Shown: positions 2,096-56,213 of the stretch, piece after piece
Layout of the letters: each line of letters opens with the position of its first letter
Numbering within the stretch: position 1 is the first letter of the stretch
Assembly: GCA_963665465.1 (NCBI GenBank)
Contig: OY762226.1
Coordinates: 4,741,177 to 4,805,176, forward strand
Direction of reading: 5' to 3'
DNA from: Vicinamibacterales bacterium
GTDB taxonomy: Bacteria; Acidobacteriota; Vicinamibacteria; Vicinamibacterales; UBA8438
Length of the DNA stretch: 64,000 nt
Position numbers and translations under genes: made by a program
Notes under the pieces: generated by a model
The model's input: the letters and a program-made list of their open reading frames with translations, nothing else
Told to the model about the DNA's origin: nothing
Databases searched by the model: none

Positions 2096-2182
2096 CGGGC
2101 CATTGTAGGTTCCGGCCAGCCGGAATCCAAGACCGAAGTTGCCTATCCCGCGATCCGCTGCAGCGCTATAGTGGAGGCGGAC

Positions 2183-2689
2183 ATGTCCAGCTCCTACCAC
2201 GACTTCGAGACGCCTATCGGCATCCTGCGCCTGGTGGGCGACGAGCGACATCTCCGACGCGTCGACCTGCCCAACGCGGCGGCTCGTGCACCCGCTGCGG
2301 CGTGGCGCGAGAAACGCCGCGCGCTGCCCGGGCCGCTGGACGCGGCGAAACGCCAGCTCGCGGAGTACTTCGACGGGCTCCGCCGCGACTTCGATCTGCC
2401 GCTCGCTCCGGACGGCACGACGTTCCAGCGTCGAGTATGGGACGAGCTCCGCCGCATCTCGTACGGCGAAACCGTCTCTTACGGCGAGCTGGCGCGCCGC
2501 ATCGGCAAGCCGACGGCGTCACGGGCGGTGGGCGCGGCCAACGGCCGCAACCCGCTCGCCATCGTCGTGCCGTGCCACCGGGTGATCGGCGCCGACGGCA
2601 CCCTCACCGGCTACGGCGGCGGTCTGCCGGTCAAGCAGGCGCTCCTCGCCCTCGAACGCCGGGCGGCCCCGGCGCCAGCGTCTGCCTAG
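2183..2689 (+). CDS. ogt: methylated-DNA--protein-cysteine S-methyltransferase
   Basis: Only the last 168 aa of ORF 20-2689 look real. They start at the in-frame ATG at 2183 ([20 protein letters not shown]...). The active-site motif is [10 protein letters not shown], preceded by [25 protein letters not shown]. Confidence 0.9.
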
Positions 2690-3440
2690 ACTCGCCAGCC
2701 TGTTCGGTTCGGGACGGCTCCGTCAGGCGGGCGGCGAACCGGCGGTGTGCGTCCGCGTCGATGCCCGCCTGCAGCTCCCGGAGGGCGGCGGCGAGGTCGC
2801 CGTTCAGCAGCGCGGGGACGGTCAGGCGCAGGCCGGGGAAGACGCGGCTGTGGACGACGCCGGCGTCGTCGGCGGGCAGGGGGCGGTAGTCGCCGTCCGT
2901 CAGCTCGAACCAGTCGATGCACTGTTCCTGGGTGCGCCAGACGACGTACTCTTGCACTCCGTTGCGGCGGTAGGCGCGCAGCTTGTCGTGCAGGTCGATC
3001 GACGCGCTGCTGGCGGCGACTTCGACGACCAGCTCCGGCGCGCCTTCGAGGTAGTCGGCGGCACTCACGCGGGATCGCCCGCCCGCCTCGGGCGCGAGGC
3101 AGAGCAGCGCGTCGGGCTGCGGTTCGTTGTCGAGATCGAGGCGGAGGGTGGCGTTGTCGTAGCCGTGGACGCCGGGCGTTGACGCGGCGTACACGAGCAG
3201 CACGGTCTGAATCATCGCGTGCGGTCCCGCATGGGCCACGCTCACCGGCGACGGCATGTACACGACCCCCTCGATCAGTTGCGCCTTCTTCAGGTCGGGC
3301 CGCAGGGCGTAGCGGCGCTCGAACTCGTAGCGCGTGAGCCGGTCGCCGTTCTCCAGCGTCGGCGCGCGGAGGGCAGGGGCCCGCGGAGGCAAGAGGGTGT
3401 CGGGCGCGCCGGACCGTGACGTGACGTCGATCTCAGCCAT
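2631..3440 (-). CDS. Uma2-family (DUF820) endonuclease, copy 1
   Basis: ORF 2631-3479, trimmed to MAEIDV at 3440. Motifs: [10 protein letters not shown]...[15 protein letters not shown]...PQPDALLC...[34 protein letters not shown]. It converges on ogt with a 59-nt overlap. Confidence 0.75.
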
Positions 3441-3524
3441 GCCGGGTGATGCCTCCAGCCCGCAACTCCTAGGGTTCATGATGCCACACCCGTCGTCGCC
3501 CGCGGCTGCCGCATCCTATGCCCC

Positions 3525-9003: not shown

Positions 9004-9017
9004 TCCGTCGCCCACGC

Positions 9018-11795
9018 ATGGACGTGCCCGCCAGACGCAATCGCGGCAGTCGCAAGCGATCCACTCCGGCGCGCGCACCGCGCGCATCCGCCCGTCGTCT
9101 GCTGGAGCGGGCGTGGGAGCTTCTCCACGCCGGAAACGGGCGCGAGGCGCTCGACCTGATCCGGCAGGCGCGGGACCGGAACGACAGCCTGGCGGGGCTG
9201 CCGCTGGTGTCGTTCTGCGCTTCCATCCAGCGCGCCCGGCATCTCACGGCCAAAGGCATGGAGAAGGAAGCGGCCACCATGCGCGCCCGGGCCGACCACT
9301 ATCGAGCGTCGATTCGCCTGCCGGCCTTGTCGGAGGACGATTGGGTGCAGTACGTCCGCTACCTGGACGGCGAGGACGCCCTGGCGACCTATGCGGGCCA
9401 CCTGGCCGGTGGGGCGCCCATGCAGCGGGTGGAGCAGGTGCTGGCGGATCGACTGGTAGTCCAGCGGTGCTGGAAGGGGCTCGACGCCTTCGACGAGAGC
9501 CACCCGCTGCGCCGGGACGTCGCGGAGGTCGGCCCCGGTCTCGAGGCGATGGACGCCGGCGACTGGGCACGGGCCGCCAGCCTGCTGCGGGGCGTGCCCC
9601 GGCGCTCGCCGTTCGCGGCCTGGCGCCTGTTCTGCAAGGCCATGGTCTGTTTCGGCGCGGGCGATGACGACGGGCTGCGCCGTACCCTCGATCTGCTGCC
9701 GGCCGACTTCGCGCTGCCCCGTAAGGTGGCCGAATGCCGGCGCCTGATAGCGCGCGACGGCGGCGGCAACGGGCACGCGCGGTCGTCGCCGGAGCCGGGA
9801 AGCGAACGGGGGTCGCTGACGGCGCTGGCCGGCGAACTGAAACGGGCGCTCCGGAACGGAAACGTGCGTGCGGTTGGGACGGTGATCGAACGTCTGGCCG
9901 ACGCCCTGTATCCGGAGGAGCCGGGTCGGGCGCGGATCGACCTGCTGCAGATCGTGGGGCTGGCAGCGGCGCGGGACCTGTTCCCCGTCGCCGCGTTCGA
10001 AGCGTTGGCGCGGCGTCTGTTGCCCGCCGAGCGGATGAGCGGCGTCCTGGCCCGCATCTTCCTCCAGGGCCAGCAGGTGTCGCCCGAGCTGTGGAACCCG
10101 ATCCCGGCCACGGTTTTCTTCAATGCGCTGCCGGGGGAGTTTCCCCGGGCGGAAGATCAGGCGCTCGCTCGGGCGTGCGTCTTCGAGGCGCTCGCGCGCA
10201 CGGGCCGCGCGGCCGTCCCTCCCGAACTGCTGCCCCCTGACAGGATGCGCGCGCTGGCCGGGCTGCTGGGCCGCCCCATCGAAGTCCCTGAACTGGTCTT
10301 CGTCGAGCTGATGACGGAGAGTCTCGAGGCCGATCCCGACAACCGCGAGGGCTACCTCTTTCTGCTCGATCTGCTGCGCGGACAGACCGCGGGCAAACGC
10401 AGGCTCCAGCGTGTCCTGCAGGACATGGCGCACCGGTTTCCCGACGATCCGACCCCGTGGCTGGAACTGGTCAGCCTGCAGCATTCGAGGAACGCGTACC
10501 GCCAGGCCGAGAGCGCGCTGGCGGAGGCCCGGCGGCGCGCTCCGCACGACGATCGGCTCCTGGATCTGCAGGCTGTCGGTTTCCTCAAGTCCGCCGATCA
10601 GAGCCGCAACAAGGGGCGGTTCGCGCTTGCCACCCGGGACTTGCAGCGCGCGGAAGACCTCGGGCGCGACGCGGTTGGGCTCGTCCTGCCGTCGAAATGG
10701 CTCCTGTTGGAGATCGTGTCCACCGGCACGGATGCGGCCGCGACGGTCACCCGTCGCCTGCAGGGACTGCCGCCTGGCGAGCAGCTTCGGACGCTGGTCC
10801 TGCTGCTGCGGGATCTGCACCGCAACAGCCACGTCAGGAACGTCCGACCGGACATGCTCGACGCCGTGTGGCGCCTGCTGGCCGACAGGGTCTCTCTCGC
10901 CGGCGAGTGTGCTCCGGACGAGATCGTCCGGCTGCTCGAGCCGCTGCCGGTCGAGCTGGGCATCCTCTACGACGACCGGCTGGTTGCCACGAGCCTCGCC
11001 GCCTGGTGGCCCATGCTTCTCGAGCGAGTGGACGGAGAACGCCTGCCGGCCGTCCTGGATATCCTGCTGGAGTGCGGCGGGTGGGCCCAGGTTCGTGCCG
11101 AGATCGAACGTCGGCTGCGGGGCGTCGGGAAGCCCCGGCGCGATCCGCTGCTGCTCTTCTATCTGGCGGTCGTGCGCTACGAGGCGGGCAGCGACCACGA
11201 TTCCCGGCGTTTCCGGGGCGTCCTGAAGGGGGCGGACATCGCCACCCGCGAGCGGTTGCGGACGGCGGCCGCCAGGCTGGCCTGCCACACGCAGGGTCCA
11301 CTGCGCCGCGCTCTGCTGACGTTCGATTTCGAACCGCTGGACGCGCCCGCCCCGGGACTGCCGCCGCTCGATGAGCTGTTGGCGTCGATCGAGGAGTACC
11401 TCGAGGCCGACGGCCCCCCGCTCGAGCGTGACGCGTTTCCGCAGTCGGCGCCACCGGATCCTGACGATCCGTCGCTGATCGAGCGGTTCCGGCTGGTGCT
11501 GACCGAGGGGCCGGCGGACGGGGGGCGCGACGCGCGGCAGGGGATGTTGTTCGATCGACGGCTATACGACGATCTGGACCGCCTGGACGAACTGATCGAC
11601 GACAACCGGTTGCGCGATGAGCCGCGGTCCGTGCTGCAGGAGCTCGGCGGCAACCTGCGGGCCGAACCGGCGGCGCGGCGGGAGCTGGAACGGCTGGCGC
11701 GCGACTGCCGGACCGCCGGTCTCCGTGACAGACTGACGCGGGAGTTGCGGGCCCTGTTGTTTCCCCGCAAGGAGAAGAAACGGCGCCGCCGGTAA
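9018..11795 (+). CDS. 925-aa hypothetical protein, apparently all-alpha/TPR-like with basic termini; first gene of the Hsp70 module
   Basis: This is the real 3' part of shadow ORF 5547-11795. The in-frame ATG at 9018 lies 15 nt after the previous stop. It starts MDVPARRNRGSRKRS and ends FPRKEKKRRRR. I recognise no family. Confidence 0.65.
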   Translation: MDVPARRNRGSRKRSTPARAPRASARRLLERAWELLHAGNGREALDLIRQARDRNDSLAGLPLVSFCASIQRARHLTAKGMEKEAATMRARADHYRASIRLPALSEDDWVQYVRYLDGEDALATYAGHLAGGAPMQRVEQVLADRLVVQRCWKGLDAFDESHPLRRDVAEVGPGLEAMDAGDWARAASLLRGVPRRSPFAAWRLFCKAMVCFGAGDDDGLRRTLDLLPADFALPRKVAECRRLIARDGGGNGHARSSPEPGSERGSLTALAGELKRALRNGNVRAVGTVIERLADALYPEEPGRARIDLLQIVGLAAARDLFPVAAFEALARRLLPAERMSGVLARIFLQGQQVSPELWNPIPATVFFNALPGEFPRAEDQALARACVFEALARTGRAAVPPELLPPDRMRALAGLLGRPIEVPELVFVELMTESLEADPDNREGYLFLLDLLRGQTAGKRRLQRVLQDMAHRFPDDPTPWLELVSLQHSRNAYRQAESALAEARRRAPHDDRLLDLQAVGFLKSADQSRNKGRFALATRDLQRAEDLGRDAVGLVLPSKWLLLEIVSTGTDAAATVTRRLQGLPPGEQLRTLVLLLRDLHRNSHVRNVRPDMLDAVWRLLADRVSLAGECAPDEIVRLLEPLPVELGILYDDRLVATSLAAWWPMLLERVDGERLPAVLDILLECGGWAQVRAEIERRLRGVGKPRRDPLLLFYLAVVRYEAGSDHDSRRFRGVLKGADIATRERLRTAAARLACHTQGPLRRALLTFDFEPLDAPAPGLPPLDELLASIEEYLEADGPPLERDAFPQSAPPDPDDPSLIERFRLVLTEGPADGGRDARQGMLFDRRLYDDLDRLDELIDDNRLRDEPRSVLQELGGNLRAEPAARRELERLARDCRTAGLRDRLTRELRALLFPRKEKKRRRR

Positions 11796-12788: not shown

Positions 12789-14620
12789 TGCCGGTGGCAA
12801 CCAGGGCGGCGGACGACGACACGGTCATCGGCATCGATCTGGGCACCACGAACTCGGAGGTGGCGATCCTCTCGGACCGGCAGCCCGAGATCGTGAAGGA
12901 GCGCGGCGAAGCCATCCTGCCGTCGTGCGTGGGGCTCGACGATGCCGGCGCCGTCATCGTCGGACGCCAGGTCCGCCAGCAGGCGGTGGCCGCTCCCGAA
13001 CGGACCGTCCTTTCGGTCAAGCGCCTGATGGGCTCCGGGACGCGCGTGCGGATGGGGCAGGAAGCCTACGCCCCGCAGGAGATTTCGGCCTTCATTCTCA
13101 AGGCGCTCAAGGAGCGGGCGGACCGCGCGCTCGGCCGGGACGTGCGCAGGGCGGTCATCACCGTCCCGGCCTACTTCACCGACGCCCAGCGGCAGGCCAC
13201 ACGCGAGGCCGGCGAGACCGCCGGCCTGACGGTCGTCCGGATCATCAATGAACCGACTGCCGCCGCGCTCAGCTACGAGATCGGCGGCACGGGGCGCCGC
13301 ACCCTGCTCGTCTACGATATGGGCGGCGGCACCTTCGACGTCTCGGTGGTGCGAGTGGAAGCGGGCGTGGTCGAGGTTCTGGCCACCGCCGGCGACAACC
13401 AGCTCGGCGGCGACGATTTCGACGCGCTCATCCTCGAGCGCCTCAACACGCACATCGAAACAGGGTTGGGGGTCGAGGATGCCCGCGAGGATCCCCTTCT
13501 GCAGGCGCGCCTGCGGCGGGCGGCTGAACAGGCCAAGATCGAACTGTCGGATCAGCCCTGCGTGCGCGTCGAGGAGGACCACGTCGCCCTGGTGGCCGGC
13601 GAGGCCAGACACCTCACCTGCGAGTTGAGCCGCGCCGATTTCGAACGCGACCTCGAGCCGTTTCTCGACCGCTCCCTGCAGGCGGTGACGACGGCGCTGC
13701 AGGATGCCGGCGTGCGTCCGAGCCAGCTCGACCGGGTGCTGCTCGTGGGCGGCTCGACCCGCATTCCGCGGATCGCCGCCGTCCTCACGGAGCGCCTGGG
13801 GCAGGAGCCGCACGGCGAGGTCGATCCGGATCTGTGCGTCGCGCTGGGGGCCGGCGTGCAGGCAGGGATCGAGATGGGACGGGACATGCAGTCCGTGCTG
13901 GTCGACATCACGCCCTACACCTTCGGCACCAGCGCCTCCGGCGAGCTGTACGGCAGGCCGTACGCCCATGAGTTCGTGCCCCTCATCCGGCGCAACAGCA
14001 AGCTGCCGGCCACCCGGACCGAAGTGTTCTTCACCATGTTCGAGGATCAGCCGCAGGTGGAAGTCAAGGTCTATCAGGGGGAGGATCCGGACGCCCTCAA
14101 GAACGTGGAAATCGGCACCTTCATGTTCACCGGCCTGAACCAGCAACCCGGCGCGCGCGACCAGGGCCTGCTCTGCACCTACAGCCTCGACCTCGACGGC
14201 CTGCTCCACGTCCACGCGCGGGAACGGGCCACCGGCCGGGAGATCCGCGGCGTCGTCGAGAACGCCATCGGGCGGTCCGGCGACGAGGCGCTCGGCGCCG
14301 CCAAGGAACGTGTCTCGGCACTCTGGGGCCTGGCGGGCGTGTCGGATGCAGAGCACGCTGCGGACGCGGCGGCCGGCGACGCTGGGGCCGGTGTCGCGGA
14401 ACCGTCTGCGGCGGCGCCCGCCCTGCCCCCGGACGTGGCCCGGGCAGCCGGGGAAACCCTGGCGCGGGCCGAGCGGGCGCTCGAGGCCGCACCGGCCGCA
14501 GATCGGGAAGAGATGATCAACCTGATGGAGGATCTCCGGGACGCCCTCGAGGAGGCCCGCGCCGCGCGGGCAGCCGAGCTCAAGCGCGAGCTCGACGAGA
14601 TCCTGTTCTACCTGGAATAG
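12785..14620 (+). CDS. Hsp70-family ATPase (DnaK paralog) with an atypical Ala-rich C-terminus
   Basis: Motifs: [78 protein letters not shown]. The start is GTG 12785 or ATG 12788, overlapping the GrpE-like stop. It ends EILFYLE with no EEVD. Confidence 0.9.
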
Positions 14621-14624
14621 CTGC

Positions 14625-14936
14625 GTGGAACGCTGTCCGACCTGCGGGGCCCGGCATGCCGGCGGGCCGTCCTGCCACCGCTGCCGGACGGACCTCCGCC
14701 AGGTGCTGGAGGTCGAACGGTGCGCGGCCCGCCACCGGCGGCTGGCCCGCGCCGCGCTCGATCGCGGCAACCGCGGGGAGGCCCGCGCCCATGCCCGCCG
14801 CGCCTGCGCCCTCCACCGGGCTCGCGAATCCCTGGTTGCACTCGCGCTGGCCGCCCTGGCAGACCGCGACTTCCCGGCCGCGCTGCGACTGTGGCGGGAA
14901 ATTCGGGCCGCTTCCGTTCGGCAGCGGCCCTCGTGA
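14625..14936 (+). CDS. Small zinc-ribbon protein (C-x2-C-x9-C-x2-C) with a helical tail
   Basis: GTG start 4 nt after the Hsp70 stop. Reads MERCPTCGARHAGGPSCHRCRTDL followed by an Ala/Arg-rich helical region. Confidence 0.5.
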   Translation: MERCPTCGARHAGGPSCHRCRTDLRQVLEVERCAARHRRLARAALDRGNRGEARAHARRACALHRARESLVALALAALADRDFPAALRLWREIRAASVRQRPS

Positions 14937-15125
14937 CCGCGAGCGCGTTTCCCCGGTTCACGAACCTGTCCCGTTCCGCTCCATGAGCTCGGGCGGTCGG
15001 CCGCCGTCTTCCGCGACGTCGGCCGGGGTCGCGGCCGAGGGCGTGCGGGTGGAAAATCGCGCGCCGCGGGATTAGACTGCACGAATCGGGTTGACGGCGG
15101 GTCGGCAACCAGAGGAGACGGCACA

Positions 15126-16544
15126 ATGACGACGATGAAACACCGGCGGGCATGGCGTCCGTTCCTGGCGGCGGCGTTCGCGGCGATCATCGCACTGCCG
15201 GCGACCGCCGCGGGGCAGCCCGCGGCCGACGAGGTCACCTTCAGCAGGGACATCGCCCCCATCCTCCAGCGGAGCTGCCAGAAGTGTCACCGGCCCGACT
15301 CGCTCGCGCCGATGTCGCTGATCGACTACGACGAGGTGCGCCCCTGGGCCCGGGCCATCCGGAACCGCACGGCGCTGCGCGACAAGCCGGGCGTGATGCC
15401 GCCGTGGTACATCGAGAAGGACGTCGGCATCCAGTCGTTCAAGGAGGATCCGTCGCTGAGCGACGCGGAGATCGCCCTGATTGCGAAGTGGGTCGACAAC
15501 GGCGCCCCGGAGGGCGACCCGGCCGACCTGCCGCCGCCGGTGGCGTTCATCGACGTGAACGAGTGGGAGATCGGCCAGCCGGATCTGGTCGTGTCGTCGC
15601 CGAGCGTGGAGCTGCCCGGGGAATCGCCCGACTGGTGGGGCCACATCGGGGAGACGCCGACGGGATTGACCGAGGATCGCTACGTCGCGGCCCTCGAGTT
15701 CAAGGAAATCACCGAGTCGAGCGTCGGCGAGCGCCGCGCCACGGTCGGGGGACTGTTCATCGTCCATCACCTGGTCATGGACATCGTCGTGCCGGACGGT
15801 GAGGACGACGATTCGCCGACGTCCCGCTGGCCGGTGCACGAGGTCGGGCGCAACGCCGACTTCTTCGACCCCGCCGCCGGCAAGCTGATCGAGGCCGGGT
15901 CGACCATCCTCTTCGAGAACATCCACCTGCATGCGAACGGCGCCGACACCCGCGCCCGCGTGGACGTCGGCTTCAAGTTCCATCCGCGCGGCTACGAGCC
16001 GACGCGGCAGGTGCGGGGGATCTCGTTCGGCAACACCGTCGATCTGGACATCGAGCCGATGGATCCCGATCAGCGGATGGAGGCGTTCTTCACGCTGCCC
16101 GAGCACACGAAGCTCAGCGTCTACGAGCCCCACCTGCATGCCCCCGGCGTGCGCATGTGCCTCGACGCCATCCTCGGCACCTCGATCGAGACGCTCAACT
16201 GCGCCGGTTACGACCACAGCTGGGTCCGCGTCTACACGTACGAGGACGACGCCGCGCCGCTGCTGCCCAAGGGCACGATCCTGCGCCTGACGGGCTACTT
16301 CAACAACTCGCCGTCGAATCCGAACGTCGCCGATCCCCGCAACTGGTCGGGCGGCGGCAACCGCTCGGTCGACCAGATGTTCATCAACATCATGCGCGGC
16401 GTCTATCTGAGCGACGAGGAGTTCGCGGAGGAGATGGCGCAACGGCGCGAGGTGTTGAACCTGATGCCCGGCGAGACCGCCGTCGGCTGCCCGCTCTGCG
16501 GCGACGCCGCGGTTTCGGATCTGGCCGAGGGGCAGCAGCAGTGA
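15126..16544 (+). CDS. Exported c-type haem domain protein with a copper-monooxygenase (PHM/DBH)-like His pattern
   Basis: A signal peptide is followed by FSRDIAPILQRSCQKCHRPDSLAPMSL (CxxCH). Later motifs are IVHHLVM, NIHLHANG and EPHLHAPGVRMC. Confidence 0.65.
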   Translation: MTTMKHRRAWRPFLAAAFAAIIALPATAAGQPAADEVTFSRDIAPILQRSCQKCHRPDSLAPMSLIDYDEVRPWARAIRNRTALRDKPGVMPPWYIEKDVGIQSFKEDPSLSDAEIALIAKWVDNGAPEGDPADLPPPVAFIDVNEWEIGQPDLVVSSPSVELPGESPDWWGHIGETPTGLTEDRYVAALEFKEITESSVGERRATVGGLFIVHHLVMDIVVPDGEDDDSPTSRWPVHEVGRNADFFDPAAGKLIEAGSTILFENIHLHANGADTRARVDVGFKFHPRGYEPTRQVRGISFGNTVDLDIEPMDPDQRMEAFFTLPEHTKLSVYEPHLHAPGVRMCLDAILGTSIETLNCAGYDHSWVRVYTYEDDAAPLLPKGTILRLTGYFNNSPSNPNVADPRNWSGGGNRSVDQMFINIMRGVYLSDEEFAEEMAQRREVLNLMPGETAVGCPLCGDAAVSDLAEGQQQ

Positions 16545-43494: not shown

Positions 43495-43910
43495 GCAAGG
43501 CGCGCACGGCGCGGGGCGAAGGGGTCCCCGCAAGCGGACGCCGGGGGTTCGGGGCGTAGCCCCATCTGATTGAGCGCCGGCGCAGCCGGCGCAAGGCGCG
43601 CACAGCGCGCCTCGGCGGGAGCGGCGCGGGGCTGTGGGGTCCCCGCAAGCGGACGCCGGGGGTTCGGGGCGTAGCCCCATTCGATTGAGCGCCGGCGCAG
43701 CCGGCGCAAGGCGCGCACGGCGCGCCTCGGCGGGAGCGGCGCGGGGCTGTGGGGTCCCCGCAAGCGGACGCCGGGGGTTCGGGGCGTAGCCCCATTCGAT
43801 TGAGCGCCGGCGCAGCCGGCGCAAGGCGCGCACGGCGCGCCTCGGCGGAAGCGGCGCGGGGCGAAGGGGTCCCCGCAAGCGGCCGCCGGGGGTTCGGGGC
43901 GTAGCCCCGT
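43495..43910 (+). repeat. Tandem array of a 115-bp GC-rich hairpin-forming unit (about 3.6 units, 4 core copies)
   Basis: The core ggggtccccgcaagcgg(a/c)cgccgggggttcggggcgtagcccc starts at 43521, 43636, 43751 and 43866, a constant 115-nt spacing. Each unit also carries aggcgcgc-ac(g/a)-gcgcgcct, an 8-bp stem. Confidence 0.9.
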
Positions 43911-48351: not shown

Positions 48352-48810
48352 TTGGCTCACCTCGAAACGCGGCCATCGTAGCACGCCGGATGCGGCTGAA
48401 TCGCGCTGCTTCGCCAGAGTTCCTCGGACCTGCGCCGGGGGCGGCCGGCGCGGGTCAACCGGTGTGTCCTGCCGGTCTCTCCCGAGCAGCTCCACGTAGC
48501 GACGCACAGCATCCTCGTCCTCCTTGTCACTGCGCCGTCTCGCGTTCAACGTGCGCCGCCCTCGCAGTGCGCGTCGCCCGAAGCTGCGGGTCAGGGCTGC
48601 GGTCTACGGTCGTCTAGCGTGTCCGCTTGCTCACGCGCGGTCGTTGGTCGTCCGCGCCTCGCTGTCTCGGGCGCGGGGTCGCTTCGGAGCCGGTCTTCCC
48701 ATTTTGGCCCGGTCCCTCATGGCCTGGCTAGGCGCCCGTGCATCCGCTATCATCCAGTCCACCCTCTGCAGATCGGATTGTCCGAACCTCGTGTGTCGGG
48801 TACATTGCCC

Positions 48811-49941
48811 ATGCCGACTCAGCAGCAACTTGATCGCGTCGAGATTCGCCGCTTCCGGGGGTTATCGGACCTCCGGATCGGCGGCCTCGGCAGCTTCAAT
48901 CTTCTCCTCGGCGCCAATGATGTCGGCAAGACGTCGGTCCTGGAGGCGCTCTTTCTGTTGACCGGCGTTGAAAACCTTGGCGTCCCGTTTCACATTCAGC
49001 GCTGGCGAGGCCTCCCTATCGCCGAGTTCGTACACCTCGAGGGGCTGTTTCATCGGCTCGATCCGGATCAGCCCATCGAGCTAGCGGCAGACTCTGGTAG
49101 CCCCGTCGTTCGGCGAACGCTCCAGATTTCTGCGCCGTACACGGAGCTGGAATTGGATCCCGACGCCTCGGCGTCGGGTGGCGGCGGGGATGGCCGCGCC
49201 CGCACTTCGGCCAGTGTCGGTCCGCCCGGCGGCCAGTCTTCTTCGCTGGCCTCCGCGCGTCGGCGACTTCTACGGTACGACGGCACGCTGCAGCCTCGCG
49301 ACGGAGATACCGTGTCGTTTTCCGGCACGCTGCGTCTCCAGGCCGACGGGGTCAAGGTGAAACAGACGAGAGAACCCTCGGACGACCTGACCATTCCCGC
49401 CCGGTACATGTCGCCCTCAATCGCCTACGACGCCTCTGCCATCGGTGAACTGATCGTTCGCAAGGAAGTCGACCGGCTCCGTCGCTTTCTGAAGTTCGTC
49501 AATCCGCGCATCCGGGACATCGCTGTCAGTGGCGATCTCGCGTACTTGGACATTGGTCTTCCCCGGATGATCCCGTTGAATCTGTTCGGCAGCGGCATGG
49601 TCCGTGCTGCCAGCGTCCTCGCTCATTGCATCCTGGGGAACGAGCGCCTTCTCTTCCTCGATGAGCTGGAGAACGGCCTCCACCATGCGGCCCTCCGACC
49701 CTTGCTTGAGGCCCTCTTGGTCTTGATCGGCGAGCACGACATGCAGGCCTTCGTGACGACCCATAGCGTTGCGCTCCTCCAGGCGCTGCTGGACGTGCTC
49801 GGCACTGACCGGTTTGCTTCCCATCGTACCGTTACGAACTGCTACACGCTGCAGCGTGACCGCGAAGGGCATGTCCGCACATACCGCTACGAGTACGAGC
49901 AGTTCGAACACTGCGTGCGACACGGGATCGAGATCCGATGA
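48811..49941 (+). CDS. AAA/ABC-type ATPase (AAA_21/AAA_15-like, OLD/AbiL/PARIS-type ATPase partner)
   Basis: ORF 48619-49941, trimmed to MPTQQQLDRVEIRRFRGLSDL at 48811. Walker A is LLLGANDVGKTSVLEAL, Walker B/D-loop is LLFLDELENGLH, H-loop is FVTTHS. G+C is lower than the flanks. Confidence 0.8.
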   Translation: MPTQQQLDRVEIRRFRGLSDLRIGGLGSFNLLLGANDVGKTSVLEALFLLTGVENLGVPFHIQRWRGLPIAEFVHLEGLFHRLDPDQPIELAADSGSPVVRRTLQISAPYTELELDPDASASGGGGDGRARTSASVGPPGGQSSSLASARRRLLRYDGTLQPRDGDTVSFSGTLRLQADGVKVKQTREPSDDLTIPARYMSPSIAYDASAIGELIVRKEVDRLRRFLKFVNPRIRDIAVSGDLAYLDIGLPRMIPLNLFGSGMVRAASVLAHCILGNERLLFLDELENGLHHAALRPLLEALLVLIGEHDMQAFVTTHSVALLQALLDVLGTDRFASHRTVTNCYTLQRDREGHVRTYRYEYEQFEHCVRHGIEIR

Positions 49942-50486
49942 GCTGGGCGTTGTTCGTAGAGGGCCACTACGACGAGGCGTTTGTCCGATGGCTGTTGGAC
50001 TCTCTGGAGGTCGAAGACGTCCGACTCCACCGTATCGACGGCGGCATCACGAAGCTGCGCTCCGTTGCGAATGAGATTTTCAAGAGCCACGACGTGGGTC
50101 GGCACGTAGCGCTGCTCCTGGATGCCGACACCGATCCGGACAGCACGCGCGAGCAGTTGACGCGAGAAGTCGCTCGACTCGATCTGCCTATCGAGCGTTG
50201 GTTCTTGCTGCCCGACGACGCTGCGCCAGGCAATCTTGAGACGCTGCTGGAGCAGATGGCTCCGGCAGCGCATCGCGCCATCTACACCTGTTTTGACGAA
50301 CACGAGGAGTGTCTCAGAACGGCGGGGTACAGCACTCCGGATCCCAAGGCGCGGGTCTACGCGTACTGTCATGCTATCGGCGCCGAGACCGGGCCGAACA
50401 AAGAATACGCCGATGCACAGCATTGGGACCCTGAGGTCCGCGACCTGGGGCCGCTACGCCGCTTCTTGCGCGGTCTTGCCGGCTGA
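49938..50486 (+). CDS. DUF3226/DUF4276-like, Toprim-like small protein
   Basis: The start overlaps the ATPase stop (ATGA). Motifs: ALFVEGHYDEAFVRWLL (Glu), VALLLDADTD (DxD), WFLLPDDAAPGNLETLLEQM. Confidence 0.6.
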   Translation: MSWALFVEGHYDEAFVRWLLDSLEVEDVRLHRIDGGITKLRSVANEIFKSHDVGRHVALLLDADTDPDSTREQLTREVARLDLPIERWFLLPDDAAPGNLETLLEQMAPAAHRAIYTCFDEHEECLRTAGYSTPDPKARVYAYCHAIGAETGPNKEYADAQHWDPEVRDLGPLRRFLRGLAG

Positions 50487-50590
50487 GCACAGTCCCGTTG
50501 GCCGACTTTCAACGGTCCGCGCCCTGGCGTCTTTCTTGACGTTGCCTCTTTTCGCGGGTCTTCGTGTGTGGCCCAGGAGGCACCTGCGGG

Positions 50591-51718
50591 CTATTCGGCC
50601 GGTATCGCTTTCCGGGTTGCCTCGTACCGCCGGACCGTGGCCTTGATTCGGTCTGCGTGGCTGAAGATGTCACTGATCGACTCGATCGCGACCCGGTCTT
50701 CGACCTTCTGCTCGTTCAACAGGCCAATCTTTTTCTGCGTCTTGTTGAAGTACAGTCGACATATGGGCTGTCGGTTCGTGTTGTCCAGCAGGATTGCGCA
50801 CAGGCTCTTGCCATCGCGGATGACCACCCTGTTGGGTGAGACCTCTTCGCTGAGAATCGCGGTCACGGCGTAGAAGGCCTGCCATTCCTCCTCGGTCGTG
50901 ACGATGCCCGTCTCGGTTCCGCTGGATCCCGCGGTCTCTTCCGCGACCGTCTCGGTCGGCACCACAGGCTCCTCGTGGTCAGTGCTCGCCAGGGCGGACT
51001 TCAGCTTGTCGCTGATACGCTTCGCCACGAACTGGTGGAGCGCCTTCTTTGTAGCTCGCGTGAACTGCTCGATCACCGCCTTGGTCTTCACGCCTTCGTA
51101 GACCTGCGCCGCGAAGTGCCGGACGAACGCCTCGGACGGATCGGTCCACTCGGCGGTGAGCAGCCGCAGGACCTCGCGCGTGTACTTGAGATCCTTGGCC
51201 GTGCTCAGAATCTGGTCGAGGTTGAACGAGCTCTTAGTGAATCGCTTCAACTCGTCGACGTCGATTCCGTCGACGTCGAGCATGTTGATCTCAAGGAACG
51301 GCCGCGCGTCCATCTTGTTCTGCTCGTCGATGTCCGAGTAGAATCGGTAGATGACGCCGTCGGTGAGCACGCCGAACCGTGCCTTGGCTACGCTGAAGTA
51401 CCGGTAGAGTTGCGAGGCGGGCTCCTTGCCCAAGTCGACCCCATAGTGCTTGCACTCGAACAGCATGATCGGGTCGGCGTTGCGGAAGATCGCGTAGTCG
51501 ACCTTCTCGCCTTTCTTCGTCCCGACGTCGGCGACGAACTCCGGGACCACTTCGGCCGGATCGAACACGTTGTACCCCAGCACGTGGTTGATGAACGGCA
51601 TCACGAGGGCGGTCTTGGTCGCCTCCTCGGTCTTGACGTTTTCGATCCGCTGCCGGATCCGGCTCGACATCTCGCGTAGCCGATCGGCCAAGTCCATGCC
51701 TTCGAGCGATTGAATCAT
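50591..51718 (-). CDS. HsdR_N-type (PD-(D/E)xK-like) nuclease-domain protein with an uncharacterised C-terminal domain
   Basis: ORF 50591-52063, trimmed to MIQSLEGMDLADRL at 51718 with GGAAGGAG upstream. Motifs: EEATKTALVMPFINHVLGYNVFDP...EKVDYAIF...IMLFECK. The lines I counted are 48-53% G+C. Confidence 0.7.
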   Translation of the reverse strand: MIQSLEGMDLADRLREMSSRIRQRIENVKTEEATKTALVMPFINHVLGYNVFDPAEVVPEFVADVGTKKGEKVDYAIFRNADPIMLFECKHYGVDLGKEPASQLYRYFSVAKARFGVLTDGVIYRFYSDIDEQNKMDARPFLEINMLDVDGIDVDELKRFTKSSFNLDQILSTAKDLKYTREVLRLLTAEWTDPSEAFVRHFAAQVYEGVKTKAVIEQFTRATKKALHQFVAKRISDKLKSALASTDHEEPVVPTETVAEETAGSSGTETGIVTTEEEWQAFYAVTAILSEEVSPNRVVIRDGKSLCAILLDNTNRQPICRLYFNKTQKKIGLLNEQKVEDRVAIESISDIFSHADRIKATVRRYEATRKAIPAE

Positions 51719-51784
51719 CGGACAAGAGCTCCTTCCCGTTACCGAACCTGCGAATCGTAGACCACCGGCGTCCAGTGACGCCAG

Positions 51785-51925
51785 ATCAGCCACTGCTGCG
51801 CGAACCGCTACATCCATGTGCCGGCGGTCGAGGCGAACGCTGCCGTCCATCAGGTTGCGCAACGCGGCGTAGGTGAATGCGGCCCCGAGGCGCAGGAGGC
51901 CCGCGGCCGCGGGCCCGGGCTTGCC
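51785..51925 (-). pseudogene. Decayed duplicate of the 5' coding end of the MFS transporter gene
   Basis: cagccactgctgcgcgaaccgct(a)catcca(t)gtgccggcgg... aligns with 54242-54385 at roughly 85-90% identity by eye, with a 1-nt indel. It translates as GPAAAGLLRLGAAFTYAALRNL, versus GPAAAVLLRLGAAFTYPAFRNL in the intact gene. Confidence 0.75.
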
Positions 51926-52029
51926 TGCTGGCCGGATAGTGTGCCGAGTCAACCGCGGTTCGCTCGAGAAGGACGTGATCATCGTGCCGTCGAACCGCAG
52001 CCAGGCCTGGCACGTACACGCCGCGGCCG

Positions 52030-52548
52030 GTGCTGCGATACGGGAAACATCCGTGCCCGACACGACGACCGTTCCCCACTACCATCTGGAGCCGCACCGA
52101 GTACGAGCGCGCGGTCGAGGCCGGCGTCTTCGGCCCCGGCGCGCGGCTGGAGCTCATCGAAGGAGCGATCCTCGCCGCGGGACCGCAGGGCAGTCAGCAC
52201 TTCACCGGCATCGAGCTCGTCGTCGACGCCCTGCTGCGCACGTTTGGTGTCGGCCACCCCGTGCGGGTGCAGGGTCCCCTCGCCGCCGGCGAAGACCCGG
52301 AACCCGAACCGGATGTCGCCGTCGTTGCGGGAGACGCACGGGACTTCCGCGACGGCCATCCGACTACCGCCCTGCTCGTCATCGAGGTGTCCGACGACTC
52401 ACTCCGGCACGACCGCACCGTCAAGCAGCGCCTCTACGCGCGTTGCGGCATTCCGCCGCTCACGATTCCGTTCGACTCTCATGCCTTGGCGGCACGCGAA
52501 CGGTGCACCTGGGGCCGGCCGCGCGGCTCAGCCGGCGATCCAGCGTGA
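52030..52548 (+). pseudogene. Uma2-family endonuclease, copy 3, C-terminally truncated
   Basis: Reads WSRTEYERAVEAGVFGPGARLELIEGAIL...PEPDVAVV...ALLVIEVSDDSLRHDRTVKQRLYARCGIP, then loses the family's (E)YW-V-D continuation at about 52455, where it meets the 3' end of vapC. Confidence 0.6.
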
Positions 52549-52879
52549 CCAGCGGACAAGCGAGCGATTCGGCGAGCGCCACGTACCAGGCATCGTAGCT
52601 GGTGAGGTTGCCGCGCAGTGCCCACACGCGTTCGGCGAAGGGCGCGAACGGATACAGCTCCACGTCGAGCTGCAGCAGGCTCCGCTGCGAGGCTGAAGCT
52701 TCAAGGCCGGAGACTTCGCCGGCGCGCTCCAGTCTGCGCAGGACGTTGGTGGCCTCCGCCAGGACCAGCTCCGGGCCGGCGAGGTGGCCCGCGGCGACCG
52801 CGGACTCGGCCCACTTGCCTTCGTGACCGGAATCGACCAGCGCCGCCACGAGCACGGAGGCGTCCGCGACGACCGTCAC
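52460..52879 (-). CDS. vapC: PIN-domain toxin (VapC family)
   Basis: The GTG start overlaps the antitoxin stop (GTGA). Reads VTVVADASVLVAALVDSG...SYDAWYVALAESLACPLVTLDRRL. Confidence 0.75.
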   Translation of the reverse strand: MTVVADASVLVAALVDSGHEGKWAESAVAAGHLAGPELVLAEATNVLRRLERAGEVSGLEASASQRSLLQLDVELYPFAPFAERVWALRGNLTSYDAWYVALAESLACPLVTLDRRLSRAAGPRCTVRVPPRHESRTES

Positions 52880-53112
52880 CGTCTGTCGGCGTCTCGCTCG
52901 CGGAGGATGCTGCTGGGCGGGACGCGGGTCTCGGCCGCCGCCTTGCGTTCGCGAACCGCTTCGAGCCACTCGTCTACCGAGGGGCGGGACGCAAGGCGCA
53001 CCAATTCCGCGCGCAGAAACCCCTGCATCGACTGGTGCTGCCGCGCGGCGCGCACGGCAAGCCGGTCGCGAACCGCTTCGGGGACGTCGCGGATAGTGAT
53101 CTGCACCGGCAT
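52876..53112 (-). CDS. Ribbon-helix-helix (FitA/Arc-like) antitoxin
   Basis: Only the last 78 aa of ORF 52876-54414 look real: MPVQITIRDVPEAVRDRLAVRAARQHQSMQGFLRAELVRLASRPSVDEWL. Confidence 0.75.
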   Translation of the reverse strand: MPVQITIRDVPEAVRDRLAVRAARQHQSMQGFLRAELVRLASRPSVDEWLEAVRERKAAAETRVPPSSILRERDADRR

Positions 53113-53165: not shown

Positions 53166-54395
53166 CTACAACTCGCGCACGCCGTGGCTGCGCACCAGGA
53201 AGTAGGCGGCTACCAGTACCAGCAGGCCGGCGTTGGCGGCGACGACCGTTTCGGTCGGGGCGTAGCGCGTCAGGGCGCCGCTGACCAGGCTGCCGAGCGG
53301 CAGGCCGCCCCGGAACGCCGTCAGGTAGATGCTCATCACGCGGCCGCGCAGCTCGTCGGGGACGGTGAGCTGCACGAGCGAGGCGGTGAGCGAGAAGACG
53401 ATGAGCAGCGCGTTGCCGATCAGGAACAGCAGCACGTAGCTCCAGGGGCCGACGGGCAGCGAGGCGAACGTCGCGACGAGCAGGCCGAACGAGGCCAGCA
53501 CCTGCAGCAGCGTCAGTCCCATGCGCTCGAACTTCCCCAGCCAGGCGACGACCAGCGCACCGGTGACGGCGCCGGTGCCCAGGGTGGTCATCATGCGGCT
53601 GAGCGTTTCGGGATCGCCGGCGAAGACCGGCAGGAAGGCCCGCAGTGGAAGGCCGAGCGACGTCGTGGTGACGGCCAGGACGGTGAGCGCCAGCAGCGCG
53701 CCGCCGCGTCCCACGTAGGTCAGGCCGCCCTTCAGGTCCTGGGCAACCGTCTGGTTGCGCTCCCGGTTGGCCGGCTGGGCCTGCATCAGCGCGAGCACGA
53801 CGATCACCACGAGGAAGGACACGCTGTTGAGCCCGAAGCAGGCGGCCAGCCCCAGGCTGGTGAACACGAGCCCGCCGATGGCCGGGCCGATCGACTGCGC
53901 CAGGTTGAACTGGATGGAGTTGAGCGCCACGGCGTTCGGCAGCGTGTGGCGCGGGACGAGCGCGGGGATCAGCGACTGGAACGCGGGGCCGCCGAACGCC
54001 TGCGCCAGCCCGGTGACGAACGAGAGCGTCAGGATGTAGCCGAGGTGCGCCGCGTCGAACAGCACGAGCAGCGTCAGGACGAGGGCGCACGCCATCTGCA
54101 GCACCTGCGACGCCATCAGCAGGTGGCGGCGGTCGTAGCGGTCGGCGGTGACGCCCCCGATGAGCGTGAACAGGAGCAGCGGAACGGCCCCGACGAAGGC
54201 GTCGAGTCCGAGGTAGAAGGCCGAGCCGGTCAGGTCGAAGATGAGCCACTGCTGCGCGAACCGCTGCATCCAGGTGCCGGCGGCCGAGGTGAAGGCGGCC
54301 GTCCACAGGTTGCGGAACGCCGGGTAGGTGAAGGCGGCCCCGAGGCGCAGGAGGACGGCGGCCGCAGGCCCGGGCCGGCCTAGCGGTTCGGCCAC
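53166..54395 (-). CDS. MFS transporter
   Basis: 409 aa with about 12 hydrophobic segments and a GTG start. Motif: GGVTADRYDRRHLL. Confidence 0.8.
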   Translation of the reverse strand: MAEPLGRPGPAAAVLLRLGAAFTYPAFRNLWTAAFTSAAGTWMQRFAQQWLIFDLTGSAFYLGLDAFVGAVPLLLFTLIGGVTADRYDRRHLLMASQVLQMACALVLTLLVLFDAAHLGYILTLSFVTGLAQAFGGPAFQSLIPALVPRHTLPNAVALNSIQFNLAQSIGPAIGGLVFTSLGLAACFGLNSVSFLVVIVVLALMQAQPANRERNQTVAQDLKGGLTYVGRGGALLALTVLAVTTTSLGLPLRAFLPVFAGDPETLSRMMTTLGTGAVTGALVVAWLGKFERMGLTLLQVLASFGLLVATFASLPVGPWSYVLLFLIGNALLIVFSLTASLVQLTVPDELRGRVMSIYLTAFRGGLPLGSLVSGALTRYAPTETVVAANAGLLVLVAAYFLVRSHGVREL

Positions 54396-54751: not shown

Positions 54752-54837
54752 GGCCGCTGCTCCAGCCGTATCTTAGCAGCCCGCCGCGGAATGTCCTCCG
54801 GCCCAGGCTCGCACGCAACCGCCTGGAAGGTTGCCCC

Positions 54838-54926
54838 AAGGCGCGCCTCGGCGGGAGCGGCGCGGGGCTGAGGGGTCCCCGCAAGCGGACGCCGGGGGTT
54901 CGGGGCGCAGCCCCGTCTGATTGAGG
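54838..54926 (+). repeat. Dispersed GC-rich repeat, near-full copy
   Basis: aaggcgcgcctcggcgggagcggcgcggggctgaggggtccccgcaagcggacgccgggggttcggggcgcagccccgtctgattgagg. Confidence 0.8.
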
Positions 54927-55610
54927 TCAGGGCCGTGCGCCGGCCAGCGGCTCGTTGAGGAAGGCGATGAACGGCGCCAGGCGCTCGAACTGGCGCAGGA
55001 GCGAGCTGTAGAAGCGGGGGCCGGTCGCGAACTCCGCGGGATGCTGCCGGCCGACCAGGAACTGCTTCAGCTTCAGGTACTCCGCGGCCGGATGGTCCTT
55101 CGGGAAGGCCAGCGGGACGCGCTTGAGGCGCTCGCCGCTGATCTCGCCGAAGCCGCGGCGGAAGGCAGGCGACTCGACGATGCCCCGCAGACGCTCGAAG
55201 TTGGCCGCCACGTGCTCGCGCAGGCGGTAGAGCTGCCTCGGCTCGGGCGCGTAGATGCCGCCGCCGACCAGCGTGTGGTCCCGGGCCACGTGGAGGTACA
55301 TGCCGGCCCCGCCGTGCTTCGTCAGCGCCCGATGGGGAAAGACGGCGGCCACGTGCGTCTTGAGCGGGCTCTTGTCGGCGGAGAAGCGCGTATCGCGGTA
55401 GACGCGGTACATCGACACCTTCGGCGCGGCGACGAGGTCCGGGGCAAACCGCGGCAGGTCCGCCGCGAGCTGATCGATGACGTCGATCATCGGCTGCCGC
55501 ACGCAGCGTTCGTAGTCCGCCTTGCGGGCGCGGAACCATTCGCGATCGTTGTTCTCCGCGAGTGCGTGCAGGAACGCCAACGTGTCGTCGGTGAAGCGCG
55601 GCGCCGGCAT
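54927..55610 (-). CDS. DUF2461 (TIGR02453) family protein
   Basis: Reads FTDDTLAFLHALAENNDREWFRARKADYE...MYRVYRDTRFSADKSPLKTH...GGGIYAPEP. Confidence 0.7.
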   Translation of the reverse strand: MPAPRFTDDTLAFLHALAENNDREWFRARKADYERCVRQPMIDVIDQLAADLPRFAPDLVAAPKVSMYRVYRDTRFSADKSPLKTHVAAVFPHRALTKHGGAGMYLHVARDHTLVGGGIYAPEPRQLYRLREHVAANFERLRGIVESPAFRRGFGEISGERLKRVPLAFPKDHPAAEYLKLKQFLVGRQHPAEFATGPRFYSSLLRQFERLAPFIAFLNEPLAGARP

Positions 55611-56106: not shown

Positions 56107-56213
56107 AGCGGACGCCGCAAGGCGCGCACGGCGCGCCTCGGCGGGAGCGGCGCGGGGCGCAGGGGTCCCCGCAAGCGGACGCCGGGGGTTCGGGGCGTAG
56201 CCCCGTCTGAATG
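56107..56213 (+). repeat. Dispersed GC-rich repeat, full unit
   Basis: Contains both modules (the aaggcgcgcacggcgcgcct hairpin and ggggtccccgcaagcggacgccgggggttcggggcgtagccccgtctgaatgaag). It ends 36 nt before ATG 56249. Confidence 0.8.

Follow-up and report, generated by a model that had tools for sequence, protein, structure and literature searches.

Gene organization and base composition of the locus

The 64,000-nucleotide (nt) stretch analyzed in this work, referred to as the window, corresponds to positions 4,741,177 to 4,805,176 of contig OY762226.1 in the assembly GCA_963665465.1 of a Vicinamibacterales bacterium. It contains a cassette of two overlapping open reading frames (ORFs) on the plus strand, the first of which encodes an ATP-binding cassette (ABC) ATPase of 376 amino acids (aa) (48811-49941) and the second a DUF3226 partner protein of 182 aa (49938-50486). 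The letters at the junction are cgATGAgc, so that the stop codon TGA (49939-49941) overlaps the start codon ATG (49938-49940) of the partner gene. Both ORFs and their overlap, which was read directly, are exactly as described in an earlier account of this DNA made from its letters and ORFs (the sequence-only reading), and the motifs quoted in that account, GANDVGKTS, LLFLDELENGLH and TTHS in the ATPase and FVEGHYDEAF, LLLDADTD and GNLETLLEQ in the partner, are all present (Table 1). The ATG start of the ATPase gene at 48811 is supported by a public gene call, P0125, which is 376 aa long and 100% identical to the window ATPase, and by the matching lengths of homologs. A longer ORF beginning with GTG at 48619 was ruled out, because the homologs and P0125 are about 376 aa long and M1 is invariant.

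Table 1. Positions of the cassette features in the window and the basis for each
Feature	Position	Strand	Basis or remarks
Upstream non-coding leader, presumed promoter-bearing	48560..48810	+	DNA similarity to both syntenic relatives
OLD/Rad50-type ABC ATPase gene, 376 aa, AbiLi-like / PDC-M38A-like	48811..49941	+	Pfam, PADLOC, AF2, Foldseek
Walker A / P-loop GANDVGKTS, aa 34-42	48910..48936	+	N36, D37, G39, K40 and T41 invariant in 55 homologs
Variable, disordered insert loop, aa 109-150	49135..49260	+	pLDDT and column entropy
ABC signature-like FGSGM, aa 259-263	49585..49599	+	G260 invariant, G262 nearly invariant
Walker B and D-loop LLFLDELENGLH, aa 280-291	49648..49683	+	D284 invariant; E285, E287, N288 and H291 nearly invariant
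H-loop TTHS, aa 316-319	49756..49767	+	H318 invariant
ATGA stop/start overlap	49938..49941	+	Translational coupling; read directly
DUF3226 gene, 182 aa: Toprim-like core (aa 1-~95) and helical C-terminal domain; predicted nuclease effector	49938..50486	+	
FVEGHYDEAF, aa 6-15: Toprim Glu E8, with D12 four residues on	49953..49982	+	Parallels BpOLD E400/E404; aligns to LVEG of P2 Old
LLLDADTD, aa 59-66: DxD on strand 3 (D62, D64)	50112..50135	+	D62 invariant; aligns to DCD of P2 Old Toprim
GNLETLLEQ, aa 98-106: invariant G98, conserved E101 and E105	50229..50255	+	Start of first post-core helix
H112-x5-C118-x6-C125 on one helix	50271..50312	+	His/Cys-Cys specific to environmental clade
KARVYAYC with K137	50346..50369	+	K137 nearly invariant, also in Klebsiella homolog
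Terminator-like hairpin, then T-rich run	50525..50544	+	Consensus scan; ~40 nt past stop codon

The cassette is compositionally foreign and horizontally acquired, and both of its genes are intact. Its G+C content is 62.8%, compared with 72.1% for the remainder of the window; in segments of 400 nt the values were 59-64% at the cassette and 69-77% in the flanks, and G+C at the third codon position was 74-75% in the cassette and 94-96% in the flanking core genes, which encode a metallo-beta-lactamase-fold protein and a major facilitator superfamily (MFS) transporter. The sequence-only reading had given this difference as 55% versus 70-80%, which was correct in direction and overstated in size; the contrast itself is real. 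The patch of low G+C extends from about 48600 to 51800, which is wider than the cassette and takes in a third, convergent gene.

The two closest relatives of the cassette, at the loci L001 (85% partner identity) and L022 (88%), have flanks in common with the window. DNA similarity to these relatives breaks at 48364 and resumes at 48560 (88% to L001 and 86% to L022), and the leader that begins there travels with the cassette and presumably holds its promoter; neither a match to the sigma-70 consensus in a consensus scan nor an Rfam family was found in it. The scan by which the terminator-like hairpin was detected is weak as evidence, with four sites found in comparison to 1.5 expected. The tRNA and Rfam scans of the window were both empty, so that neither a tRNA as integration site nor a known RNA partner is present.

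The ATPase

The first gene of the cassette encodes a complete ABC ATPase of the OLD/Rad50 type, without a close solved relative, in which all of the motifs for nucleotide binding and hydrolysis are kept (residue conservation was scored over 55 homologs). The protein matched the Pfam families AAA_21 (1.9e-19) and AAA_15 (2.6e-14). Among the PADLOC models, it matched AbiLi (PDLC02336; 1.1e-43, profile positions 4-340 of 340) and PDC-M38A (PDLC04608; 2.6e-30, with residues 6-359 aligned to positions 4-349 of the 367 in the profile), and weaker, partial matches were obtained with AriA, GajA, HEC-01/02A, mad3, and Old; these and the other PADLOC matches in this report are profile E-values and not calls by PADLOC's own thresholds. 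The AlphaFold2 (AF2) model has a mean predicted local distance difference test score (pLDDT) of 81.8 and a beta-rich middle insert. When this model was compared with the PDB by Foldseek, the retron Eco8 effector (3e-11), PtuA, GajA, Thermus OLD, and the heads of Rad50/SMC proteins were recovered with E-values of 3e-11 to 1e-8, and the family profile reached the PDB sequences of PtuA, OLD, GajA, and AriA through the P-loop and C-terminal motifs only. The assignment to the AAA_21/AAA_15 ATPases of the OLD type, which the sequence-only reading had proposed, is therefore one on which the Pfam, PADLOC, and fold matches agree.

A part of the ATPase that differs from the rest is the loop at aa 109-150. 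Its residues 113-148 have pLDDT values below 50 in the AF2 model and are predicted to be disordered, and the loop has the highest column entropy in the family (2.28 bits, in comparison to about 1.0 in the core) while its length is kept at about 42 residues. It has been proposed that flexible loops in AriA, the ATPase of the PARIS system, are the binding site for the trigger Ocr (PMC11464382), and because of these loops in AriA the aa 109-150 loop may be regarded as a candidate trigger-sensing surface.

The DUF3226 partner

The partner protein matched the Pfam family DUF3226 (PF11536) with an E-value of 1.5e-12 and a score of 48.2 bits, above the cut-off of 27 (residues 4-180 aligned to positions 3-206 of the 208 in the profile), and the same family was matched in 59/59 family members scanned. 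A word-indexed search yielded 164 relatives and an exhaustive search 2,202 clusters at 50% identity, 886 of them at E <= 1e-10; nearly all of these relatives stand alone, with lengths of 180-210 aa. Down to 25% identity, six positions are invariant (G9, D62, P92, G98, C118, and C125) and eight are nearly so (E8, D12, G35, A63, E101, K137, Y143, and W163). The AF2 model (pLDDT 95.2) has the order b1-a1-b2-a2-b3-a3-b4 followed by helices, the elements being strand 3-7, helix 10-22, strand 28-32, helix 41-52, strand 56-62, helix 67-81, and strand 87-91, with E8 after strand 1, G35/G36 after strand 2, and D62-x-D64 ending strand 3. The Toprim domain is defined by a Glu after strand 1, a Gly after strand 2, and a DxD at strand 3 (PMC6755086), and the modeled partner has the four-strand order with the conserved Glu, Gly, and DxD at these places. 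The sequence-only description of the partner as a DUF3226/Toprim-like protein with a Glu...DxD arrangement is thus supported by the Pfam match as well as by the model.

OLD nucleases add to this core a second Glu four residues past the Toprim Glu (E404), T506/E508 on the first post-core helix, and K562 (PMC6755086). In the partner, E101 of the GNLETLLEQ motif is a candidate second-metal ligand whose position resembles that of T506/E508 on BpOLD helix alpha-H1, and K137 is a candidate catalytic lysine like K562 of BpOLD. Together with D12, these residues appear, by analogy, to sit where the two-metal site and the lysine of OLD lie. In addition, C118 and C125, which do not vary among 60 sequences with identities as low as 25%, are missing from the homolog on the Klebsiella plasmid described below, and the H112/C118/C125 element, which occurs in the environmental clade only, may be involved in metal binding or redox chemistry. 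A further cysteine, C144, is kept in the closer relatives, and H112, C118, C125, and C144 are all absent from the Klebsiella homolog.

When the 59 family members were compared with profiles of defense proteins, PDC-M38B was matched by 56 (best 3.5e-9), AbiLii by 49 (5.2e-8), AriB by 25 (9.4e-5), mad4 by 21, HEC-01B by 20, and DUF4435 (best 1.4e-3) and OLD-like_TOPRIM by 16 each. The matches to AriB, mad4, and HEC-01B span the b1-b3 core, and that to AbiLii spans the region from the DxD strand to the C-terminus. An hhalign comparison with P2 Old gave a single alignment, in which FVEG...DAD was placed on LVEG...DCD (residues 393-455) in the correct register with a probability of 14%. With the viral models of BFVD, the top Foldseek match of the partner was a DnaG/twinkle TOPRIM domain (E 3e-3, probability 1.00); several primases and one RloB-like protein came next. 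Scattered topoisomerase matches were found in the PDB at template modeling (TM) scores of about 0.3. Searches of PDB sequences with the partner alone and with two family profiles returned nothing significant, PH0156 (2P62) being reached at E = 1.7 via the FVEG motif; no NCBIfam model matched the partner, and no mention of DUF3226 was found in the literature searched. The homology evidence for the partner is therefore weak for each single sequence and consistent across the family. The partner appears to be Toprim-like with an apparently competent metal site, and the support at the level of the fold is incomplete. For the sequence-only reading, which had staked its proposal on a Toprim-like fold and catalytic acidic residues, this means that the acidic motifs are conserved, and that the evidence for the fold is weak, consistent, and does not refute the proposal.

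Linkage of the two genes, host range and the Klebsiella plasmid pair

The linkage of the two genes was surveyed in 21 genome loci and in another 9 contigs, and wherever both genes were intact the ATPase gene was located directly upstream of the DUF3226 gene. Among the intact junctions (n = 24, with two loci entered twice), a 4-base overlap (ATGA or GTGA) was found in 20, a 1-base overlap in three, and direct abutment in one. Furthermore, identity to the window pair co-varies between the two proteins with r = 0.95. The pairing of these adjacent, co-oriented genes is far beyond chance, and from their constant order, their overlaps, and the co-variation of their identities it follows that the two genes are coupled in translation and inherited together as one unit. 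Among the hosts are Vicinamibacterales, Bryobacterales, Rhodothermales, Latescibacterota, Longimicrobiales, Spirochaetia, Alpha- and Gammaproteobacteria, and one Campylobacter; the distribution of the pair is patchy, with co-inheritance over several phyla and insertion sites that vary.

When plasmids were searched by tblastn with the window ATPase, 135 records were found, nearly all of them from Klebsiella. The combination of an ATPase and a DUF3226 protein is annotated by RefSeq in about 140 Klebsiella plasmid records. For instance, NZ_CP076014.1 (locus L032), a 4,167-bp ColRNAI plasmid of Klebsiella pneumoniae, carries at 1953-3700 a gene for a 371-aa 'ATP-binding protein' (WP_096768689.1) that overlaps a gene for a 210-aa protein (WP_012579086.1) named 'DUF3226 domain-containing protein' by RefSeq, and the only other annotated genes encode Rop and a helix-turn-helix protein, which leaves the pair as the sole non-backbone cargo. 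The Klebsiella ATPase matched AbiLi at 1e-58 and PDC-M38A at 1.2e-43, both along its full length. Its partner gave E-values of 6.6e-27 with DUF3226 and, in a full-length match, of 3.9e-11 with PDC-M38B. An hhalign comparison of the window family with the Klebsiella partner gave a probability of 98% (E 1.2e-13), with E8, D12, the DxD, G98/E101, and K137 in register. No literature was found on the pair of the Klebsiella ColRNAI plasmid, and none on PDC-M38 by name.

The 4,167-bp plasmid is near-clonal and non-mobilizable, and it occurs in isolates from humans, dogs, and chickens in several countries. One Klebsiella plasmid record has an IS1 element within the ATPase gene, and an ATPase with 68% identity is found on 3.8-kb plasmids of E. 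coli and Salmonella.

The PDC entries of PADLOC are 145 untested phage defense candidates drawn from cassettes within BREX, DISARM, or type I restriction-modification (RM) loci, and PDC-M38 pools three types of cassette with counts of 84, 66, and 57 (bioRxiv 10.1101/2024.01.29.577857). The suggestion in the sequence-only reading that the window pair may be an undescribed variant is thus not supported, because the combination of an ATPase with a DUF3226 protein has already been catalogued as the PADLOC candidate PDC-M38, and the same architecture is present in the RefSeq records of Klebsiella plasmids.

Genomic neighborhood

Ten neighborhoods of the pair were sampled for defense genes. Toxin-antitoxin (TA), RM, or transposase genes were located near the pair in about five of the ten: an HSDR_N protein, Uma2, and VapBC in the window; HigBA and a Tn5-like transposase in L022; a transposase in L024; Fic, NYN, and PIN proteins with an AAA_15 protein in L025; and a transposase, a type I RM system, and Dam in L029. 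Neither a UvrD-like helicase (GajB) nor a reverse transcriptase adjoins the pair in the window or in the ten neighborhoods.

The ATPase gene has been interrupted independently in L001 and L022, with 9-bp junction overlaps at window positions 49077-49085 and 49511-49519. The insertions, 1.7-2.8 kb in length, are located at 7452-9143 and 10502-12215 in L001, the second of these lying close to the partner gene's 3' end, and at 6736-9574 in L022. The L022 insert encodes a DruA/DUF4338-domain protein and a 503-aa protein that resemble the nearby Tn5-like transposase. Since different insertions are found in such close relatives, the locus counts as a variable hotspot and the module as dispensable. 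Disruptions by insertion sequences (IS) are typical of dispensable, costly accessory genes.

The convergent gene in the low-G+C patch (minus strand, 50591-51718, or as far as 52063 in the mechanical ORF) codes for about 375 aa. Its product has a nuclease-like domain of the type I restriction HsdR N-terminal kind (HSDR_N 1.8e-12, HSDR_N_2 2.5e-9), the C-terminal half being unassigned, and the gene carries a 478-bp internal deletion in L001. This gene was ruled out as a third component of the module because it accompanies the pair in the two syntenic relatives and at no other locus, and it looks like an independent neighbor. Downstream, a 144-bp direct repeat (88% identity) is present at 51783-51926 and 54239-54381; the left copy duplicates part of the MFS transporter gene's 5' end and gives a 490-aa ORF its spurious N-terminal extension. 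The repeat looks like an insertion or recombination scar at the hotspot. Between its copies lie a gene for a putative endonuclease of the Uma2 family (52030-52548, plus strand; 7.5e-14), an adjoining VapC-like PIN gene (52460-~52879, minus strand; 1e-13), and a 78-aa ORF (52876-53112, minus strand) that precedes the VapC-like gene and was read as its antitoxin from sequence alone. Window positions 52004-52874 have no counterpart in L001 and L022, and therefore close genomes differ in the TA genes that they have at this hotspot.

Elsewhere in the window, a GC-rich unit of 115 bp is present in 3.5 tandem copies (96% matches) at 43507-43908 and in single copies at 54837-54931 and 56151-56213. Its dispersed single copies are intergenic, both in the window and in L022, and it appears to be an intergenic repeat family of this lineage resembling repetitive extragenic palindromic (REP) elements. 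In L025, a second ABC ATPase (AAA_15/AAA_21, 453 aa) and a PIN-domain protein are encoded at 14508-16354, about 4 kb from the pair, with Fic and NYN genes between; an ABC ATPase paired with a PIN protein is the architecture of the validated system HEC-03 (bioRxiv 10.1101/2024.01.29.577857). The loci L027 and L028 have in common a neighborhood of ANKH, aminotransferase, PALP, 5-enolpyruvylshikimate-3-phosphate (EPSP) synthase, and 2'-5' RNA ligase genes, in which the pair lies on opposite sides of PALP, and this suggests either independent insertions or a local rearrangement.

Proposed function and alternatives

By analogy with known systems, we consider it likely, with a probability of roughly 0.6, that the pair is a self-contained, horizontally transferred 'split OLD' module of two genes, in which the ABC ATPase would act as sensor and regulator and the DUF3226 protein as effector, together forming an ATPase-licensed nuclease that aborts infection. 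The evidence from the ATPase, from the partner, and from their linkage supports the split-OLD, AbiL/PARIS-like interpretation given by the sequence-only reading. The parts themselves are present and conserved, and the steps may be pictured by analogy with OLD, Gabija, and PARIS, the mechanism of which provides the basis (PMC11464382). In such a scheme, an oligomer of the ATPase would hold the DUF3226 nuclease inactive; a cue derived from a phage, perhaps read by the aa 109-150 loop, would together with ATP binding or hydrolysis free or activate the nuclease; the nuclease would then cut nucleic acid (tRNA/RNA or DNA) with Mg2+; and infection would be aborted as a result.

Several observations weigh against this proposal. 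As for the partner, most members keep Asp at D64, with Asn in its place in part of the family, the scores of the window partner itself are marginal (AbiLii, 0.0043; PDC-M38B, 0.0054 over residues 4-73), and the Foldseek search of the PDB with its model returned nothing at E <= 1e-3, the matches being to generic three-layer alpha/beta domains. As for the genomic context, five of the ten neighborhoods (L023, L026, L027, L028, and L030) contained housekeeping genes only, so that the vicinity to known defense genes on which the sequence-only reading relied is seen in about half of the sample and not in the remainder. Neither protein had a tblastn match in the phage collection, and the partner had none in the plasmid collection. 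In L022, the DUF3226 ORF is intact despite the broken ATPase gene, and therefore the protein is not obviously a lethal free toxin, a polar effect of the insertion on its expression being equally possible. Finally, HEC-01, a related system that pairs an ABC ATPase with a TOPRIM protein, gave no protection from the phages tested (bioRxiv 10.1101/2024.01.29.577857), and no published test of any member of the ATPase and DUF3226 family was found in the literature.

A bolder form of the same proposal is that the DUF3226 partner defines a separate, mechanistically distinct class of split OLD immune systems, with a minimal Toprim effector of about 185 aa that has its own C-terminal helical domain, the His/Cys-Cys element in the environmental clade, and a substrate or trigger unlike those of PARIS, Gabija, and P2 Old. 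We regard this as doubtful.

Alternatively, the pair could be an addiction or stabilization module similar to TA systems, in which the DUF3226 nuclease acts as toxin and the ATPase as antidote, serving mainly the maintenance of the pair itself or of the island or plasmid that carries it and not defense against phages. The pair is compact, tightly coupled, and mobile, TA genes surround it in the window (Uma2, VapBC), in L022 (HigBA), and in L025 (Fic, NYN, PIN), and it is the only cargo beyond the backbone of a small Klebsiella plasmid; PARIS, too, has been described as acting like a type II TA system (PMC13064643). However, the intact partner gene beside a disrupted ATPase gene in L022 is hard to square with a potent toxin, unless its expression has been lost. 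In addition, ColRNAI plasmids are generally high-copy, and addiction would be little needed by a plasmid of this type. An addiction role is therefore unlikely, even though roles in addiction and in abortive infection can coexist.

It is also conceivable that the pair excludes other mobile DNA, such as plasmids and integrative elements, rather than phages, in a manner similar to Wadjet or Lamassu. The ATPase fold is closest to the heads of Rad50, SMC, and OLD proteins, and the inactivity of HEC-01 against phages (bioRxiv 10.1101/2024.01.29.577857) and the absence of matches to the partner in the phage and plasmid collections and to the ATPase in phages would fit this possibility. On the other hand, the AF2 model of the ATPase has no long coiled coil, no kleisin-like or DNA-loop-extrusion partner was found, and the closest sequence relatives are abortive-infection systems of the AbiL and PARIS types, which makes such a role decidedly improbable. 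A housekeeping function, as a RecF/RecR-like pair of repair mediators or an RNase M5-like RNA maturase, would be consistent with an N-terminal match of the ATPase to RecF (TIGR00611, 9.3e-8), with the name '5S rRNA maturation endonuclease (ribonuclease M5)' given by the Joint Genome Institute (JGI) to the homolog P0014, and with the OLD-type Toprim active site that RNase M5 has in common with OLD (PMC6755086), but it can be dismissed almost entirely, because the RecF match has a score of 31.6 bits against a cut-off of 172 and covers the P-loop region only, the partner is matched by no NCBIfam model, the pair is patchily distributed, foreign in composition, and inserted at varying sites, its copies are disrupted by IS in close relatives, and a homologous pair resides on a small plasmid. 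All three of these alternatives are less likely than the split-OLD defense module.

If the module is active, the pair would represent an experimentally untouched branch of the superfamily of ABC-ATPase and Toprim defense systems, beside OLD, Gabija, PARIS, AbiL, and MADS, and one that is widespread in phyla of soil and sediment, including Vicinamibacterales and other Acidobacteriota, Gemmatimonadota, Rhodothermales, Latescibacterota, Spirochaetia, and Alphaproteobacteria. The 4.2-kb Klebsiella plasmid provides a tractable model for the family and may matter for phage therapy of K. pneumoniae. The result for the window itself is ordinary, namely one more accessory defense/TA islet at a variable chromosomal hotspot.

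Comparison with known systems

Among the fused systems, OLD classes 1-3 (P2 Old, GajA, and the retron Eco8 effector) provided the best structural matches for the window ATPase, and residues E8, D12, D62, D64, E101, and K137 of the partner parallel E400, E404, D455, D457, E508, and K562 of BpOLD. In these proteins, however, the ATPase and the Toprim domain are fused in one polypeptide, whereas in the window they are encoded by separate genes. Gabija also possesses the UvrD-like helicase GajB, whereas the window pair has no adjoining helicase or reverse transcriptase.

PARIS (AriA and AriB, class 4 OLD-like) resembles the window pair in that an ABC ATPase is split from a Toprim effector, and flexible loops that are possible sensors are common to AriA and the window ATPase. 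The AriA model matched the window ATPase at 1.5e-20 over the C-terminal half, and the AriB model matched the partner family in the b1-b3 core only. The effector of PARIS, however, is a DUF4435 protein, whereas the window partner is a DUF3226 protein without a match to DUF4435 even at E <= 10, and in the strict sense it is distinct from AriB/DUF4435 and from the GajA Toprim domain, as had been recognized in the sequence-only reading. The two systems also differ in size: AriB is about 35 kDa (PMC11464382), whereas the window partner has about 180 aa, and the window ATPase has 376 aa in comparison to the 464-aa AriA chain of PDB 8ux9. The beta-rich middle insert further distinguishes the window ATPase from AriA. 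The PARIS study counts AbiL and MADS3-4 among the systems that pair an ABC ATPase with a TOPRIM protein and annotates TOPRIM-Old, DUF4435, RloB, and DUF4276 as partner domains, a set from which DUF3226 is absent (PMC11464382).

AbiL of Lactococcus, like the window pair, consists of two genes, for an ABC ATPase (AbiLi) and a Toprim-like protein (AbiLii). The lactococcal AbiL proteins are larger. AbiL has been grouped with PARIS among the ATPase and TOPRIM/OLD systems (PMC13064643, PMC11464382), and its mechanism is stated to be unknown in a 2026 review (PMC13064643). No plasmid of Lactococcus was reached by tblastn, whether the query was the window ATPase, the window partner, or the ATPase of Klebsiella, and because neither ATPase led to one, membership of the window pair in AbiL in the strict sense is not established.

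The PDC-M38 pair of Klebsiella is like the window pair in its gene order, its overlapping stop and start codons, and its DUF3226 partner. The two pairs are only 22-25% identical, the partner has 182 aa in the environmental clade in comparison to 210 aa in Klebsiella, and the invariant pair of cysteines is found in the environmental clade only. Furthermore, the window copy is chromosomal and lies outside any BREX, DISARM, or RM locus, unlike the founding cassettes of PDC-M38. The window pair is therefore best placed as a divergent environmental member of the AbiL-like/PADLOC PDC-M38 group, a plausible defense module and not a new kind of system.

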